Below, piece after piece: positions 11,122-42,204 of a stretch of DNA of 64,000 nt. The notes below the pieces were generated by a model, which saw nothing but the letters and a program-made list of their open reading frames with translations, was not told the DNA's origin and made no database searches. Every line of letters begins with the position of its first letter. The first letter of the stretch is position 1. This stretch comes from Firmicutes bacterium ADurb.Bin248 (GTDB lineage Bacteria > Bacillota > Clostridia > Christensenellales > CAG-138), in assembly GCA_002069725.1 (NCBI GenBank), contig MWBW01000002.1, positions 11,225 through 75,224 of the forward strand, read 5' to 3'. A program made the position numbers and the translations under genes.

Positions 11122-11155
11122 CAATTGACAATGGAAAATTAACAATCGACAATCG
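11122..11155 (+). repeat. CAATTGACAA-family AT-rich motif (2 copies) just after the M15 stop
   Basis: CAATTGACAATGGA (11122-11135) is identical to the reverse complement of 27294-27307. AACAATCGACAATCG lies at 11141-11155. Confidence 0.85.
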
Positions 11156-18517: not shown

Positions 18518-21104
<2,587 letters not shown>

Positions 21105-21115
<11 letters not shown>

Positions 21116-21135
21116 CAACTGATAATTGACAATAA
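21105..21135 (+). repeat. Three overlapping CAATTGACAA-family motifs containing the clpB stop codon
   Basis: TTGACAATTGACAACTGATAATTGACAATAA. clpB ends GTT GAC AAT TGA inside it. Confidence 0.9.
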
Positions 21136-21194
21136 AGGAACGGCCGCCGCGGGCGGGGAATTGCGGGGGGCGGCCCTGTGCGGCCGCCGTTCCT
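21136..21194 (+). other. Long GC-rich hairpin between clpB and the next gene
   Basis: AGGAACGGCCGCCGCG ... TGCGGCCGCCGTTCCT. 14 Watson-Crick pairs plus one G-T wobble out of 16 positions. No U-tract follows. Confidence 0.5.
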
Positions 21195-21211: not shown

Positions 21212-21625
21212 ATGCTCAGGGAAAGGGCTGAAAAATACTACCTCGAAGGCGATTACAACTGCGCGGAGGCGATCCTGCGCGCGGCCAACGACGCCTGCGC
21301 GCTCGGCCTTCGCGAGGACGCGCTGCGGCTCGCGGGCGGCTTCGGCGGCGGCATGGGCCGCGGGGAAGCCTGCGGCGCGCTGTGCGGCGCGATGGCTGTC
21401 ATCAGCGCCGTTCTGATCGAAACGCGCGCGCACGCGACGCCCGGCTTCAAGCAGAAGTGCGCGGACTACGTCGCGCGCTTTGAGGGAAGGCTCGGCGGCA
21501 TAGACTGCCGCGACCTCAAGCCGAAATATGCCCGCGACGGCCGCCGCTGCGCCGACGCCGTGGCGCTGGGCGCGGAACTCTTGGAAGAATTCCTGCGGGA
21601 ATGCCATGTCGTTGTTCAACGGTAA
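21212..21625 (+). CDS. C_GCAxxG_C_C family protein
   Basis: 137 aa. YNCAEAIL.., GEACGALCGAMAV, and later conserved Cys residues. GGAGAGG SD. The last codons and the stop lie in the first REP unit. Confidence 0.8.
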   Translation: MLRERAEKYYLEGDYNCAEAILRAANDACALGLREDALRLAGGFGGGMGRGEACGALCGAMAVISAVLIETRAHATPGFKQKCADYVARFEGRLGGIDCRDLKPKYARDGRRCADAVALGAELLEEFLRECHVVVQR

Positions 21626-21820
21626 TAGGCGGCAAAGCAGGGGCCGATTCCATATCGGCCCCTGGTTCAACGACAATAGGCGACAAAGTAGGGGCCGATT
21701 CCATATCGGCCCCTGATTCAACGACAATAGGCGACAAAGCAGGGGCCGATTCCATATCGGCCCCTGATTCAACGACAATAGGCGACAAAGTAGGGGGCCG
21801 ATTCCATATCGGCCCTTTGA
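21615..21820 (+). repeat. Tandem array of four 51-bp REP-like stem-loop units
   Basis: Units start at 21615, 21666, 21717 and 21768. Each holds GGGGCCGAT-TCCAT-ATCGGCCCC (hairpins at 21640-21662, 21691-21713, 21742-21764; the fourth is slightly degenerate at 21795-21815). Confidence 0.95.
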
Positions 21821-21866
21821 CGTTTTCAAACGATCACGCGGGCGGATGATATCCGCCCCTGCGGCG

Positions 21867-24767
21867 TTAATTTTCCTCCGCCCGGATCAGCGCGCCGAAC
21901 AAATCCCGATTCGCCTTTAATTTCTCCGCGTTCCCGAACACGCACACGCAGTTTTTCGCGACGACGGCGTCGAACATCTCGCCCGCGGCGCGGAAATCCG
22001 CGACGCCCGTCGAGAGCAGTTCGTCGCGCTCTTTCTGGCGATCCTCGTGCGTGATGCCCGCGATGTGCCTTTTGACGGCCTCCTGCCCCTGCATGAAGGG
22101 CGGCAGAGGCGCGTCGAGGTCGGCGATGCCGCTGATGACGTTGTTCTCCACGTCGCTTTGCGTGAAGCCGGCCGCGCGCAGGTAATCCCCGACGCCCCTG
22201 TAGACGGCGAAGGTTTCCTTCAGGTTCGGGTCGCGGTAGCTCAGAAGCTCGAGTATGCCGTCCTCCGAGATGCGAAGCATCGCGCCGTACGCGCCGCCCT
22301 GCACGCGGATGGCGTTCCAGAGGTAACCGCTGCGGAGGAAGTTGCGCAGCGCGATCAGCTTTCCGCTGTAGGGGAAGCCCAGCTTCACGAAGTCGTAGGA
22401 CTGCGAAACATACTGCACCATCGACGCCGAGAGTATGCCCTCGTTGCGGATGCGCTCGGCAAACCCCGTTGCGCGCGCTTGTGCGCTCTCTTCCGGGAGG
22501 TTTTGCGTGAGTCTGTCCGCGTTGGCCGCGAACGCATCGAGCTGCTCCCTCTGCCCCGTGAGCGCGAGGGTAAGCTTTGCGCCTGCGAACAGCTTCCGGG
22601 CGAGCAGGCCGAGCCTTTGCGCGAGCGCGTCCGCGCCGCCGGGCAGGGATTTCGCCGCGCGCGCGACGTGCTCGTAGAACCCGAGCCCCGCCGCCGCGTC
22701 CATGACCGCGGCCTCCTCGTGATAATAGGAACGGTTGCGATAAGCCGCGTACTGGTAGGCGTTGTCCTGCAACTCGAGCTGCAGCGCGGCATTCAGGGTG
22801 CGCACGAGCTGCGCAAGGCGCGTCCGGTCGTCCGTATTCGCGCCCGTGAGGATGTCCTCCATGAGCGCAAGACCCTCGGGCAGTTTATCCGTCACGCAGC
22901 GCAGCGTTACGCCGAGGTAGGGATATACGTTTTGGTCCTTCCTGCGGATCGCCCTGCACTCCGAAACGATGCCGCCCGTGGATACGTCGATGTCCTTGGC
23001 GAGCTCCTCGAAGGAGCGGTTCTTCGTGCCGAGCTTGTCGAGAAGGTAGGCGAGAAGCGCCGCGTCCTTCCATTCCTCCTGAGAGAAACCGCCAAGATCG
23101 AACATCGCCGTCACATACGCGATGCCCGCCGTGAACGCGTCGTGCCAGAGAAGCTTGACTTTTCCGCATTCGCTCTCCTCGACGGGGAAGGGCGTCGCCT
23201 TCCTCTCGACGTCGGCGAGCGTCAGCCGCGGTATCGCCGCGAGCGCCTCGGGCGAATCCGGCGTCTGCTGCCATGCGCGAAGCTTTTCGGCGGCGTCCTT
23301 CACGCGCGCGAGCTCGGCCCCGCTCATTCCGGCCTTCACCTTTGCGAGGCGTTCGCGCTCCGCGGCCTCCTGCCGCGCGAGCAGGCCCTTTTCGGGCTTG
23401 AGCGTAACGAAGGCCGCGTTGTCGTTGTCCAGCAGATATTTTTCGATGAGGCCTTCGAAATAGCGCTTTCCCGCCTTCTCGCGTATGGCTTCGATCTCCC
23501 GCTCGTAGCTGAGGCCCGCGCCGATCTTCGCGCCGTAGTTCCAGTCCTGCAGCACGTAGATCGCGCTCATGATGCGCGCGTATACGCCGGAGAAGGAGGC
23601 CTCGCGCAGCGCGAAGTCCAGGCGGTTGACCGCGCCCTCGACGAGCCTGGGATCGAGTCCTTCCGCGACGAGCTTGCGCAGCGTTTCGTCCATGACGCAG
23701 CGGAACTTCGCCATGCCGTCCGCCTCCGCGCCGCTGAGCGTGATTTGCAGCATGCCCCAGAGCGCGCGCTCGGGCCGCGCCGTGACCTCGCGGCCGACGC
23801 CCGCCTCGAGCAGCGCCTTTCGCACGGGCGCGGCCTCGCCGCCGAAGAGCATCTGCGCGAGCATCATCACGCCCAGTTCCTCCTCGCGCTCGTTCGGGGG
23901 AAACACAAGGTAATTCGCCGACAGGTACGTCATGCCCGCGTCGTCCTGCTCCTCGGGGATGGCGTAGTCGAAAACGGCTTCGCGCGGCGCGGCGTGCGGC
24001 GCCTGCGGCTCGAGCAAGATCCGCTCCACGGGCTTTTCGTAATGCGAAAAATATTTTTCGTCTATGCAGTCCAACACGGGCTCTATGGGCATGTCGCCCG
24101 CGATCACGGTGAGGGAATTGCCGGGATGGTAGTATTTTTTATGGAAGGCGGCGAACTGCTCCTGCGTGAGGCCCGGTATGGCGTTTGGCGCGCCGCCCGC
24201 GTTGAAGCGGTAGAAGTTCGTGAAGAGCGTGCGCTGCACCGCCTCGGCGAGCTGCCTGTCGGGCGAGGACATCGCGCCCTTCATCTCGTTGTACACCACG
24301 CCGTTCAGTATGAGCTCCCCCGCGTCGTCCAACTCGTAGTGCCAGCCTTCCTGCATGAGTATCTCGGGCTTTTCGCGGATGCGCGGGTTCAAAACCGCGT
24401 CGAGATAGACGTCCATGAGGTTGTAGTAATCCCGAAGGTTGGGCGTCATGACGGGATAGGTCGTGAAATCCGTGCTGGTCATGGCGTTGAGGAAGGTGTT
24501 GAGCGAACCCTTCATCAATTCGACGAACGGCTCCTTCACGGGATATTTTCCCGAGCCGCACAGTACGCTGTGCTCCATGATGTGCGCCAGTCCCGTGTCG
24601 TCCGAGGGCATCGTGCGAAAGCCGATCATAAACAGTTTTTGCGGGTTGTCGTCCCCGATGTGGACGAGGGTCGCCCCCGTGCCGACGTGCTCGTATACGC
24701 TGAGTATCCCGTTGAGCTCCGCGATGTTTTCCCGGGAAATCAGCCTGAACGCCCCTTGCTCCGACAT
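21867..24767 (-). CDS. Insulinase-family metallopeptidase (M16C, PreP/CYM1-like)
   Basis: About 966 aa. The inverted zinc motif HIMEH sits in ..[14 protein letters not shown]... Start placed at ATG 24767 after GGGGGA. Confidence 0.9.
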
Positions 24768-25193
24768 AAAAAAGTCCCCCTTTGTTTCAGTAAGCCTTTT
24801 GCGGCGTTCCACAAAACGCGATTTTCAATATTTTACCACGCGCGCGGCTTTCTGGAAAGCGGCCGCCGAACGTACGACAAAAGTCGTGGATCGCTTCGCC
24901 GCGCCGGGGCGGGAGAACCGCGAAAAAACGCCGTTTATGCGCCGTTTTGCCGGCAGGGCGGCGTTCCCGCGGCCTTTGCGACGAATGCGCGCCGTTCAAA
25001 TACTATTTGCCCGCGCGGCGAAAACAATTCATCCCGGCACAGCGCGCGTTCGGACAAAAATACCTGTTTTGGCGCGTTTCTTTGCTTCCTTTTCACAATT
25101 ATTCCTTTGCCATTGGCGGCGTTTGTGGTAATATTATTAGGATTGCATTATGGATTAGTATGCGGCCGAAGGCTTGCATACGGGAGGGAAAGT

Positions 25194-30700: not shown

Positions 30701-30938
30701 GAATTATCATTATATTATGCACCAGGCGGGAATGTCAACATCGGCCGGCGCGCTCAGAACAGCTCGTCCAGTAATATATAATACCGGATCTTCTCCCAGT
30801 CCGGCCCGATGCCCATCTCCTCGAACAGCATACGCACGTCGACGCCGCCGTAGACCCTCCCGCCGTACGCCCTAGCGCCGTAATCGTAGCCCGACCCTAA
30901 ATCGGCCTGCGATTCCGACGGTCGCAGTAGGCCCGACC

Positions 30939-31619
30939 CTAAATCGGCCCGCGAATAATCGATTCCATATTGGTGAATTCATAGCCGTTCTTTAGAATTC
31001 TGAAGCCGGTCGGATCATTTCGCCAGTTCGCGGGATTATCGTCTATGTAGCGCCATATCTTCCGGTATTCCTGCTCATCGCGGATGATGTGATCGTAGTA
31101 AGAGCGTTGCCAGATTTTTTCATAAAAAGGCGGCGCAATTCCCTCATTAACTAATTTGATATATTCGATTGTTGAATGCCGTTTGAACGCCTGTATGATG
31201 TTCGGAATTGTCGCCGTAGCCGTAGGGACCGATTCTATATCGGCCCGTGATTCCTTATGGATTACGATGATTGCGTGCAGATGATTTGGCATGATTACAT
31301 ATTTCGGGCATTCAACGTCAGGGTATTGACGAAGGGTTTCCAAAAAGATGGTTTCGATCATGCGTGCGGGTATTGTATCCGTCATGCGAGAAGACCCGGT
31401 CTCGCCACAAACGTCATCTGCGCCGGGCGATATGGAATCGCGGGCCAATATGGAATCGCGGGCCGATATGGAATCGCGGGCCGATATGGAATCGGCCCCT
31501 ACGAGGGGATTGCCGAACAACGGTTCGCGATGATTGGTGCATATCGTGATAAAGTACGCGCCTTTTTTGCTGTAATCGTACTTGCGCATCCGATTTCGTT
31601 TTCGACGAGGGAAATCCAT
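30939..31619 (-). CDS. REP-associated tyrosine transposase (RAYT; IS200/IS605-like Y1 HUH family)
   Basis: KYDYSKKGAYFITICT N-terminus, HUH motif MPNHLHAIIV, C-terminal IWQRSYYDHIIRDEQEYRKIWRYIDDNP (catalytic Tyr region). Start uncertain (ATG 31619 or 31589). Confidence 0.8.
   Translation of the reverse strand: MDFPRRKRNRMRKYDYSKKGAYFITICTNHREPLFGNPLVGADSISARDSISARDSILARDSISPGADDVCGETGSSRMTDTIPARMIETIFLETLRQYPDVECPKYVIMPNHLHAIIVIHKESRADIESVPTATATIPNIIQAFKRHSTIEYIKLVNEGIAPPFYEKIWQRSYYDHIIRDEQEYRKIWRYIDDNPANWRNDPTGFRILKNGYEFTNMESIIRGPI
31221..31252 (+). repeat. REP copy inside the RAYT CDS (same orientation as the 21.6-kb array)
   Basis: GTAGGGaCCGATTCtATATCGGCCCgTGATTC compared with array unit GTAGGGGCCGATTCCATATCGGCCCCTGATTC. 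Encodes ESRADIESVPT on the minus strand. Confidence 0.85.
31428..31499 (-). repeat. Four tandem 18-bp REP half-units inside the RAYT CDS (opposite orientation)
   Basis: The unit CGATATGGAATCGCGGGC occurs three times, then CGATATGGAATCGGCCCC. The full hairpin GGGCCGAT-ATGGA-ATCGGCCC lies at 31478-31498. Encodes GADSIS(ARDSIS)ARDSILARDSIS in frame. Confidence 0.9.
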
Positions 31620-31668
31620 ACTGCCACCGCCTGCTTATTCGGTTCCATATCGGCCTGCAACTCTTTCT

Positions 31669-40798: not shown

Positions 40799-42181
40799 AT
40801 GGATCAACGCGTCGATCGCTGGATAGACGAGCATGGGGAACAGATGGTACGGGGCCTGCAAAAGTGCCTCTCCTACAGGACGGTGAAGGATTCCGCCGCC
40901 GCGAAGCCGGGCGCGCCCTTCGGGCCCGAGATCGCGGACTGCCTCGAGGACGCGCTCGCGCAGGCGCAGGCGCTCGGCTTTGAAACGAAGAACCTCGACG
41001 GATATTGCGGTTGCGTCGATTTCGGCGAGGGAGAGGAGCAGTTGGGCATACTCTGCCACCTCGACGTCGTGCCCGAGGGGGCGGGGTGGAAGCATCCCCC
41101 CTATGCGGCGGAGATCCACGACGGCATGCTCTACGCGCGCGGCGTGATGGACGACAAGGGGCCCGCCTTCGCCGCGCTCTACGCCATGGCCGCGATCAAG
41201 GCGCTGGATTTACCCATGAAGCGCCGCGTGCGGCTCATACTCGGCTGCGACGAGGAGAGCGGCATGGAGTGCCTCGCGCACTACAACAAGGTCGAACCCG
41301 CTCCGGACATGGCCTTCTCGCCCGACGCCGAATACCCTGTGGTCAATTCGGAAAAGATGATCTTCCGCAGCGAATATAAAAAGGAATATCCCTCCGCGAT
41401 CCGCATCAGATCCGGCACCGTGCCCAACGCCGTGCCCGGCGAGGCGGAGGCGGAGCTTTCGCTTTCGCTCAACCGGATACTGCCCATCGTGGAAGCCTTC
41501 ATGGAAAGGAGCGAATACGCCTGCGCCGCCGAGGCGGCGGACGGCGGCTGCCGCATCAAAGTGACGGGCGTCGCCGCGCACGCCTCCATGCCGGAGCAGG
41601 GCAAAAACGCCTTCCTGGCGCTGCTTCAGCTCCTCGATAAACTGCCGCTCGAAAAACAGGACGCGGCGACCGTTTCCGCCCTCGCGGACGTTCTTCGCCT
41701 CGATTACTACGGGCAGCGGTTCGGCCTCGATATGGCGGACGCCTCGGGCAGGCTCACGCTCAACGTCGGCGTGGTCGATTGGGACGAAACGGGCCTCAGG
41801 CGCCTCACCGTGGACATCCGCGCGCCCATCTCCGCTGACGGCAACGTGATCCGCCGAAAGCTCGCCGAAGGCTTCGCGCCCGCCGGCCTCGCCGAAATCA
41901 AAGCGAGCTGGAGCGAGGGCTATTACATGCCGCCCGAGAGCGAGCTTGTGAAGTCCCTGCTCGACGTGTACGCCGCGCGCTCGGGCAAGTATCTGCCCCC
42001 GCTCGCCATCGGCGGCGGCACCTACGCGCGCCACCTCAAAAACGCGGTGGCCTTTGGCATAGAGCGCCCGGGCGAGCCTTCCCCGGTCCACATGGCCAAC
42101 GAGCGCATGCCCGTCGCCCACCTCGTCGAGGACGCCAAGATGATCGCCGACGCCATAATCGCGCTCGCGGTGGAAAAATAA
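40799..42181 (+). CDS. M20-family dipeptidase (PepV/Sapep-like)
   Basis: ILCHLDVVPEG, ARGVMDDKGP, C-terminal ..GGGTYAR... ATG 40799 lies 5 nt after TGGAGGT. Confidence 0.85.
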   Translation: MDQRVDRWIDEHGEQMVRGLQKCLSYRTVKDSAAAKPGAPFGPEIADCLEDALAQAQALGFETKNLDGYCGCVDFGEGEEQLGILCHLDVVPEGAGWKHPPYAAEIHDGMLYARGVMDDKGPAFAALYAMAAIKALDLPMKRRVRLILGCDEESGMECLAHYNKVEPAPDMAFSPDAEYPVVNSEKMIFRSEYKKEYPSAIRIRSGTVPNAVPGEAEAELSLSLNRILPIVEAFMERSEYACAAEAADGGCRIKVTGVAAHASMPEQGKNAFLALLQLLDKLPLEKQDAATVSALADVLRLDYYGQRFGLDMADASGRLTLNVGVVDWDETGLRRLTVDIRAPISADGNVIRRKLAEGFAPAGLAEIKASWSEGYYMPPESELVKSLLDVYAARSGKYLPPLAIGGGTYARHLKNAVAFGIERPGEPSPVHMANERMPVAHLVEDAKMIADAIIALAVEK

Positions 42182-42204
42182 TTGACATGGACAATTGACA
42201 ATCG
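42180..42204 (+). repeat. Two CAATTGACAA-family motifs overlapping the stop of the dipeptidase gene
   Basis: AAA TAA TTGACATGGACAATTGACAATCG. Confidence 0.9.

Follow-up and report, generated by a model that had tools for sequence, protein, structure and literature searches.

The biology of REPs has been worked out mostly in Proteobacteria. GTAG-tagged REPs are short G+C-rich palindromes with an unpaired 5' GTAG tag, dispersed through extragenic DNA (Di Nocera, De Gregorio and Rocco 2013, BMC Genomics 14:522, PMC3733652). [quoted passage not shown] A second point of comparison is subclass 2.4 of TnpA_REP, or RAYT group 4 (Quentin et al. 2018, BMC Genomics 19:475, PMC6006769; Bertels et al. 2017, PMC5581495), which is reported to be abundant among Cyanobacteria and Bacteroidetes and goes with canonical long REPs whose stem has GT[AG]G at its foot and begins with three G-C pairs. 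A trait of this subclass is that the transposase gene contains REP copies, inserted in frame at a point between the HUH and Tyr motifs (PMC6006769).

REPs also occur in composite forms. The BIMEs of Escherichia coli, for example REP325 with its 12 alternating Y/Z2 units, are multi-hairpin arrays in 3' UTRs or intergenic gaps, with a copy number that varies between strains; successive units point in opposite directions and are bound by IHF or gyrase, and a dual role has been proposed for them, as mRNA stabilizer and partial terminator. E. coli REP arrays stabilize upstream mRNA and bring about partial, partly Rho-dependent termination, and where REPs lie between two converging genes, both of these tend to be more highly expressed (bioRxiv 10.64898/2026.03.23.713779). 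REPINs are non-autonomous REP-derived repeats, inherited within a lineage along with a single-copy RAYT, in which an inverted REP doublet forms one larger hairpin (Bertels and Rainey 2011, PMC3116915).

The array considered here (21615-21816) lies in a window of 64,000 nucleotides, which is the whole stretch of DNA that was analyzed. It is a cluster of a GTAG-type REP arranged head-to-tail, ordinary in kind and in a layout already described in other bacteria, and it reveals no new mechanism. It differs in its host, an uncultured high-GC member of the Clostridia; the words Firmicutes and Clostridia are absent from the text of PMC3733652. Taken as a whole, the reading of the array as a cluster of one GTAG-type REP (family F1), with the local duplication history and the 3'-UTR role proposed below, is held with high confidence.

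Upstream of the array, on the plus strand, is a gene of the C_GCAxxG_C_C family (21212..21625, 137 aa; Pfam PF09719, 81.8 bits over residues 15-126; TIGR01909, 80 bits). TRF reports a tandem repeat at 21615..21815, with a period of 51, 3.9 copies, 94% matches and a score of 351, and every unit contains the hairpin GGGGCCGAT-TCCAT-ATCGGCCCC, so that the tandem REP-type stem-loop array proposed in an earlier note, made from the letters of this DNA, is confirmed. Matches to the 23-nt hairpin are exact at 21640, 21691 and 21742 and have one mismatch at 21794, against a chance expectation of 0 in the window (100 shuffles). All units are on the plus strand. Unit 1 (21615..21665) comprises a 25-nt locus-specific spacer, a GCAG tag and a hairpin (21640-21662) whose stem begins 14 nt past the stop codon of the C_GCAxxG_C_C gene. 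Unit 2 (21666..21716) has a GTAG tag and its hairpin at 21691-21713; unit 3 (21717..21767) has a GCAG tag and its hairpin at 21742-21764, and differs from unit 2 at a single position out of 51. Unit 1 is unlike both at 4-5 positions, which gives pairwise identities of 46-50/51 among units 1-3. Unit 4 (21768..21816; GTAG tag at 21790-21793, hairpin at 21794-21816) departs from them mainly by a 1-nt insertion, an extra G that brings the spacing to 52 nt; its 3' arm ends in CCCT, leaving 8 Watson-Crick pairs and one G.T, and T-rich TTTGACGTTTT comes next. Half of the units thus carry GCAG rather than GTAG, unlike the GTAG-tagged REPs.

The earlier description of a 9-bp perfect stem in each unit and a 51-bp head-to-tail period holds for units 1-3, where the stem can be extended to 10-11 bp. 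It fails for unit 4 on both the stem and the spacing, and the head-to-tail layout itself stands. The absence of a CRISPR array, also claimed at that stage, is upheld: the segments between the hairpins are themselves repeated rather than unique. All four hairpins lie on the same strand, sense with respect to the C_GCAxxG_C_C gene, which rules out a BIME. The likeness to BIMEs and REP325 lies in a multi-hairpin array within a 3' UTR or intergenic gap, in a copy number that may vary between strains and, by analogy, in the dual role that could be proposed; the difference is that the present units stand head-to-tail, with a linker of local unique DNA. A REPIN is ruled out as well, the array being without inversion and mixed orientation being found at only one of the 16 F1 loci, which is not the present one. 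What is shared with REPINs is the presence of non-autonomous, REP-derived repeats alongside a single-copy RAYT, inherited within a lineage.

The gap between the C_GCAxxG_C_C gene and the converging gene of an M16C/PreP-type peptidase (21867..24812, minus strand) is 241 nt long and contains the four units and one further hairpin. The latter (21840..21862, minus strand) is a single REP of a second family, F2, with the sequence GCAG-GGGCGGAT-ATC-ATCCGCCC on the minus strand; it is located 4 nt past the stop of the M16 gene, in the sense orientation of that gene. Between unit 4 and this REP, TTTCAAACGA (21824..21833, plus strand) is similar to the unit start TTCAACGA, and the same bases are found in an independent assembly (L050) and on a related contig (G013:C95), both discussed below. 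It may be a degenerate partial fifth unit, or a short direct repeat that seeded the duplication.

Open frames run across the array on both strands, and it could be asked whether the repeat is coding, that is, whether a minus-strand ORF of 90 codons (..ESGADMESAPA..) or a plus-strand ORF of 82 codons represents a real repeat protein. The only thing that keeps these frames open is a unit length of 51 nt, equal to 17 codons. On the minus strand, the ORF continues antisense into the C_GCAxxG_C_C gene, the extra G of unit 4 shifts the frame, no such ORF exists in the REP-free orthologue, and the hairpin is elsewhere extragenic and accompanied by other spacers. On this ORF evidence a coding repeat was rejected, its probability being practically negligible.

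The same hairpin is dispersed through the assembly to which the window belongs (G000; 2.64 Mb, 144 contigs, 62% GC), as a member of a GTAG/GCAG-tagged REP family. The genome-wide count suggested in the earlier note gives about 25 F1 copies at about 16 loci, almost all of them extragenic and downstream of genes, near gene ends (crude GC3-filtered ORFs serving as gene calls). This number is modest compared with the GTAG-tagged REPs. The F1 signature consists of a G[T/C]AG tag, a G+C-rich stem of 8-9 bp and the loop TCCAT; the 5' tag is GTAG in 17 of the 25 copies, GCAG in five and another sequence in three. Variant copies retain the stem by double changes, as in GGGGACGAT..ATCGTCCCC and GGGGCGGAT..ATCCGCCCC. 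In the 25-copy alignment, 95.6% of stem cells are paired and 13 cells are compensatory (C-G to A-T or G-C), a result reached by 0 of 500 shuffles, with slid controls giving 35-53% paired cells. Pooling F1 and F2 (53 loci), 22 loci are convergent, 18 tandem and one divergent, according to the same crude ORF calls. A short G+C-rich palindrome with an unpaired 5' tag, dispersed and extragenic location, a bias to convergent or same-direction gaps, tandem clusters of REP plus flank, and stop-codon overlap are all features held in common with the GTAG-tagged REPs of PMC3733652. Among 61 genomes of the same order, the F1 hairpin is present in eight of the 16 from the genus and in none of the 45 from other genera; one relative (G007, 3 contigs) has 53 copies.

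By the standard of classical REP families, about 25 copies is a low count.

As in the described GTAG-tagged systems, where the same REPs flank a RAYT gene, F1 is tied to a RAYT. The gene for this REP-associated Y1 HUH transposase (30939..31619, minus strand, 226 aa) lies 9.4 kb from the array. It scores 65.9 bits with NF047646, below the cut-off of 80 bits, and 21 bits with PF01797, both of them generic models. E. coli TnpA_REP (PDB 4ER8) can be aligned with it at the HUH motif (H113-L-H115) and at the C-terminal Tyr helix, and the GC content of the gene is 48%, compared with 62% for the window. The hairpin link to a RAYT gene some 9 kb away, drawn in the earlier note, is substantiated by two F1 copies within the RAYT reading frame, at 31477-31499 (1 mismatch) and 31225-31247 (3 mismatches). 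The first belongs to a segment of the N-terminal part (31424..31499, minus strand) made of a full REP hairpin and an in-frame half-hairpin repeat of 18 bp x 4 (GADSISARDSIS..). The second (31225..31247, plus strand) is an in-frame REP copy, inverted relative to the gene, that codes for the loop SRADIESVPT past the HUH motif. It also accounts for the peptide resemblance reported earlier between the array and a loop of the RAYT. Both peptides are real (..ESGADMESAPA/T.. in the minus-strand frame across the array, ESRADIESVPT in the RAYT loop), but they have no separate meaning, because the same DNA hairpin is read in the same frame, the RAYT having an inverted in-frame REP.

The RAYT orthologue of G007 (71% identity) has an exact internal F1 copy at the same loop position, is flanked on both sides by F1 arrays with a 57-bp period, and is without the N-terminal half-hairpin expansion. 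No RAYT homologues were detected in four incomplete genomes that contain F1 hairpins. The internal copies, the flanking arrays in G007 and the restriction to the genus together indicate, at the level of sequence, that the F1 family belongs with this RAYT.

A RAYT paralogue is encoded on another contig of the window's genome (G000:C13; 33.5-38% identity), with its own REP family, F2, around and inside it. F2 hairpins (GTAGGGGCGGAT-ATC-ATCCGCCCG) number about 63, at 37 loci. Nine of them form a head-to-tail array with a period of about 44 bp that begins in the paralogue's stop codon, which lies within the GTAG tag of the first F2 REP; more F2 hairpins are found upstream of the gene, and an internal copy occupies the same loop past the HUH motif. 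The window's RAYT and its paralogue therefore both have the in-frame REP copies between the HUH and Tyr motifs that mark subclass 2.4, to which the canonical long REPs, the GT[AG]G foot and the three G-C pairs at the stem base also point; this likeness is one of motifs. The host lies outside the Cyanobacteria and Bacteroidetes in which that subclass is described as abundant, and the window's RAYT adds the N-terminal expansion of 18 bp x 4 half-REPs. As internal REP copies are already published for subclass 2.4 (PMC6006769), their presence in the RAYT was dropped as a novelty.

The relation of the array to the upstream gene needs more care. As the earlier note had it, unit 1 starts inside the C_GCAxxG_C_C gene: the final codons and stop, that is the last 11 nt of the gene, TTCAACGGTAA, reading (GT)T CAA CGG TAA, are the first 11 nt of unit 1, and the TAA stop is at 21623-21625. 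It does not follow from this overlap alone that an insertion or expansion remodelled the 3' end of the gene, and that part of the claim is not supported: when a segment is duplicated head-to-tail from a left boundary inside a gene, the first copy stays as it was, and the gene with it. The simpler reading is that the repeat took up a copy of the gene's own end instead of supplying that end, because the 28-nt non-hairpin part of the unit is found nowhere else in the genome. Three GC3-rich ORFs elsewhere in the genome do have an in-frame stop formed by the TAG of a REP's GTAG tag; unlike such stops, also known from GTAG-tagged REPs, the present one is a TAA in the copied flank.

The tail of the protein is unconserved. 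Of the 137 residues, the Pfam domain is already complete by residue 126, and the tails of seven C_GCAxxG_C_C orthologues are all unlike, with 10-15 unrelated residues after a conserved ..LLE.. motif. The closest REP-free syntenic orthologue (L049) has 82% identity and the same converging M16 gene, only 82 nt off. Its gene ends in ..REHGIMGN, with the stop inside a different repeat, an AATTGAC heptad element, which a GC hairpin follows; its DNA departs from that of the window after CTGCGGGAA, at a point 13 nt before the array begins. In this lineage the gene end is thus plastic, and it lies within a repeat in both lineages compared.

The origin of the unit can be read from its spacer. The 28-nt non-hairpin part has no other match in the genome. 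Scans with a 21-nt spacer pattern returned the same array on JAPXSN010000095.1, among 185,579 species-representative genomes, and four other matches (one in a genome contig, three in metagenome contigs), which were set aside as chance, with no hairpin nearby. The part is thus unique to the locus, so that each unit consists of one REP joined to DNA of this locus, the two having been reiterated together in situ. The architecture recurs: head-to-tail arrays with locus-specific spacers are found at three of the 16 F1 loci and eight of the 37 F2 loci, with periods of 40-99 nt, so that at least ten other REP loci in the genome share the architecture of the present array.

From this anatomy, the following history may be proposed. 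One REP would have settled about 14 nt downstream of the C_GCAxxG_C_C stop, between the two converging genes, possibly seeded by the family's RAYT, a Y1 HUH enzyme acting on single-stranded hairpin DNA. A 51-bp segment, running from the final 11 nt of the gene through a spacer of 14 nt to the tagged hairpin, would then have been duplicated head-to-tail in place, up to four copies, the C_GCAxxG_C_C gene being left intact. Replication slippage or unequal recombination is the likely cause. A short direct repeat, TTCAACG at 21615 and TTCAAACG at 21825, flanks the array and may have primed the duplication. Half-hairpin duplications of 18 nt, found in the RAYT gene and in an array on another contig (C12), point to slippage at REP hairpins.

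A different origin would have the RAYT itself build the array, by cleaving the foot of a REP and joining the strand to a neighboring REP during replication, a local peel-and-paste that would amplify the REP together with its linker. Such a process would fit the occurrence of head-to-tail arrays at 11 of the 53 REP loci, in both families and flanking both RAYT genes, the termination of several arrays at the 3' foot of a hairpin, and the behavior of REP sites as hot spots, orthologous intergenic sites in a sister species differing in REP family or copy number. Against it, the boundaries are not consistently at a hairpin foot (the C12 array stops about 30 nt beyond it), they are rotationally ambiguous given a whole number of units, and the 18-nt half-hairpin duplications in the RAYT gene and the C12 array resemble plain slippage. 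Construction by the RAYT is for these reasons regarded as quite unlikely, and slippage or unequal recombination at a single founding REP remains the preferred origin.

Comparison with related genomes, a check already called for in the earlier note, gave four units in three assemblies, three units on one further contig, and a REP-free site in L049. An independent ENA assembly (L050) contains the identical 4-unit array, letter for letter, with the protein one residue different, and the four hairpins are present in a third, error-rich assembly (L051); the array is therefore not an assembly artefact of one genome. The three units are at the same site on JAPXSN010000095.1 (G013:C95), a contig of 4.6 kb that is 98.4% identical to the window. 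G013 was considered as a sister species with the same array, and this was rejected: twelve other G013 loci are only 78-91% identical to the window, and G013 has its clpB end on a separate contig, where the downstream region is not the same. Probably, then, C95 comes from a strain of the window's species and was mis-binned; its assembly has 1x coverage. The difference of three against four units between near-identical strains is suggestive only, as the 3-copy allele could be a collapsed assembly of this 1x contig.

Orthologous sites of G013 and of the window's genome differ in their REP content: a single F1 REP faces a whole REPtron with the second RAYT (RAYT-2) at one site, a single F1 REP faces an array of F2 x 4 at another, and an inverted pair faces one REP at a third. 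Judged by these sequence comparisons, REP sites turn over fast in the genus.

As the F1 units are sense to the C_GCAxxG_C_C gene and the F2 REP is sense to the M16 gene, both converging mRNAs would end in stable hairpins. By analogy with E. coli REPs, the hairpins would be transcribed into the 3' UTRs of both mRNAs, where they may block 3'-to-5' exonucleases and act as partial terminators or roadblocks. A 3'-UTR barrier or terminator role of the array can be inferred from this analogy; alternatively, the array may be near-neutral selfish DNA. No intrinsic terminator was called on the plus strand of the array, and no U-tract was found after units 1-3, where CTGATTCAACG stands instead; the T-rich tail of unit 4 is weak, and a marginal terminator-like site was seen on the minus strand only. 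In a crude genome scan, a terminator-like site occurs within 150 nt downstream in 27% of REP-followed genes, compared with 19% of others (p = 0.15), and in eight of the 14 positive REP-followed genes the terminator-like hairpin called is the REP itself. With no depletion in this crude scan, nothing indicates that REPs replace canonical terminators. A known Rfam RNA and a canonical terminator were both rejected as identities for the array, with no match reaching a gathering score and no plus-strand site.

It may be asked whether the array is instead a selected regulatory RNA, such as a multi-hairpin terminator, an attenuator or a small RNA for the converging genes, with its copy number under selection. 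The array RNA folds far better than shuffles (z = -8.5), a GC hairpin is present at the same place in REP-free orthologues, and the four copies are identical in two independent assemblies. The first stem, at 14 nt past the stop codon, is also within the range of about 15 nt at which E. coli REPs reportedly lower translation via ribosome stalling, an effect that Liang, Rudd and Deutscher are said to have described in 2015. Nevertheless, no Rfam family was matched (the best hits reached 17-21 bits, E = 0.38-0.53, where the gathering scores are 35-100), units 1-3 have no U-tract, and the same hairpin follows unrelated genes throughout the genome. Furthermore, copy number may vary among near-identical strains, and no depletion of canonical terminators behind REP-followed genes was seen in the crude scan. 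A selected regulatory RNA is thus considered very improbable. The dispersed REP, reiterated at this site and possibly acting as a 3'-UTR barrier, is retained as the reading of the array.

One further interpretation is broader and more speculative. Arrays of a REP and its local linker might be the footprint of in-place amplification by subclass-2.4 RAYTs; they would then record recent RAYT activity in a Clostridia lineage, and could double as tunable multi-hairpin 3'-UTR barriers between converging genes. This interpretation is tentative and, on present evidence, unlikely. It draws on the recurrence of arrays at about one fifth of REP loci, in two families and at both RAYT genes, and on the possible copy-number difference.

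For the lineage itself, the locus adds a REP/RAYT system to an uncultured high-GC Clostridia genus of digester or gut-type metagenomes, where REPs are little described. The system comprises two families of hairpin, two paralogous RAYTs and numerous head-to-tail arrays. Annotators should treat the array, and the open frames that cross it, as repeat DNA, neither genes nor CRISPR. In this lineage, the repeat that happens to occupy the gene end often decides the final codons of small genes.

The gene for the REP-associated Y1 HUH transposase (RAYT; window 30939-31619, minus strand) is flanked by degenerate REP-like pieces at 30880-30960 and 31620-31665, with two copies of GTAG(G)CCCGACCCTAAATCGGCC downstream and a half hairpin, TTCCATATCGGCC, upstream. 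The last ~22 codons of the ORF (..TNMESIIRGPI) extend into these pieces and are without match in the orthologue of G007, another genome of the genus, for which the alignment stops at residue 204. Within the gene, an 18-nt half-hairpin duplication (loop and 3' arm; 31424-31494) lies in frame. The same kind of 18-nt duplication is found in the C12 array, a REP array elsewhere in the window's own assembly, G000 (G000:C12:18182-18402), where every unit of 99 bp contains it, and the two cases together suggest slippage at the hairpin.

G000 holds a second REPtron (G000:C13:45560-46620), composed of a RAYT paralogue and its own REP family (GTAGGGGCGGATATCATCCGCCCG), here family 2. The stop codon of the paralogue is the start of a head-to-tail array of nine hairpins with a ~44-bp period, hairpins of the same family are also present upstream, and an internal REP copy occupies the loop past the HUH motif.

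The stretch that separates clpB from the C_GCAxxG_C_C gene contains another repeated element (window 21100-21190), which consists of a run of AATTGAC heptads and, after it, a GC hairpin with the arms CGCCGCC/GGCGG. The heptads provide the last codons and stop of clpB (..GTT GAC AAT TGA). Further heptad sites occur in the window at 11122-11155 and 42180-42202. Genome-wide, ~98 such runs were counted, versus 2 in the reversed-genome control, and they frequently adjoin REPs.

The syntenic orthologous locus on a Logan contig (SRR29870302; L049, 520-625), 82% identical, has no REP in the gap between the C_GCAxxG_C_C and M16 peptidase genes. There, the C_GCAxxG_C_C gene ends inside a heptad element (GGCAATTGACAATC), which is followed by the hairpin GGGGATTCCGCCGCGGCGGAATCCC, and a gap of only 82 nt separates that gene end from the M16 gene. 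JAPXSN010000095.1 (L044, G013:C95), a 4.6-kb contig at 1x coverage in which the C_GCAxxG_C_C gene bears a 1-nt deletion, is 98.4% identical to the window, whereas identity to G000 is 78-91% for the other contigs of the G013 MAG; the contig was probably mis-binned from a strain of the window's species.

At the convergent gap orthologous to the second REPtron, G013 (L053, 740-880) carries only a single REP of family 1, the family of the window's 51-bp array. The intergenic site G000:C46:7445-7740 contains an array of four family-2 units, and its orthologue in G013 (L058, 770-915) contains a degenerate family-2 hairpin together with a single family-1 REP. At fixed sites, REP families take one another's place.
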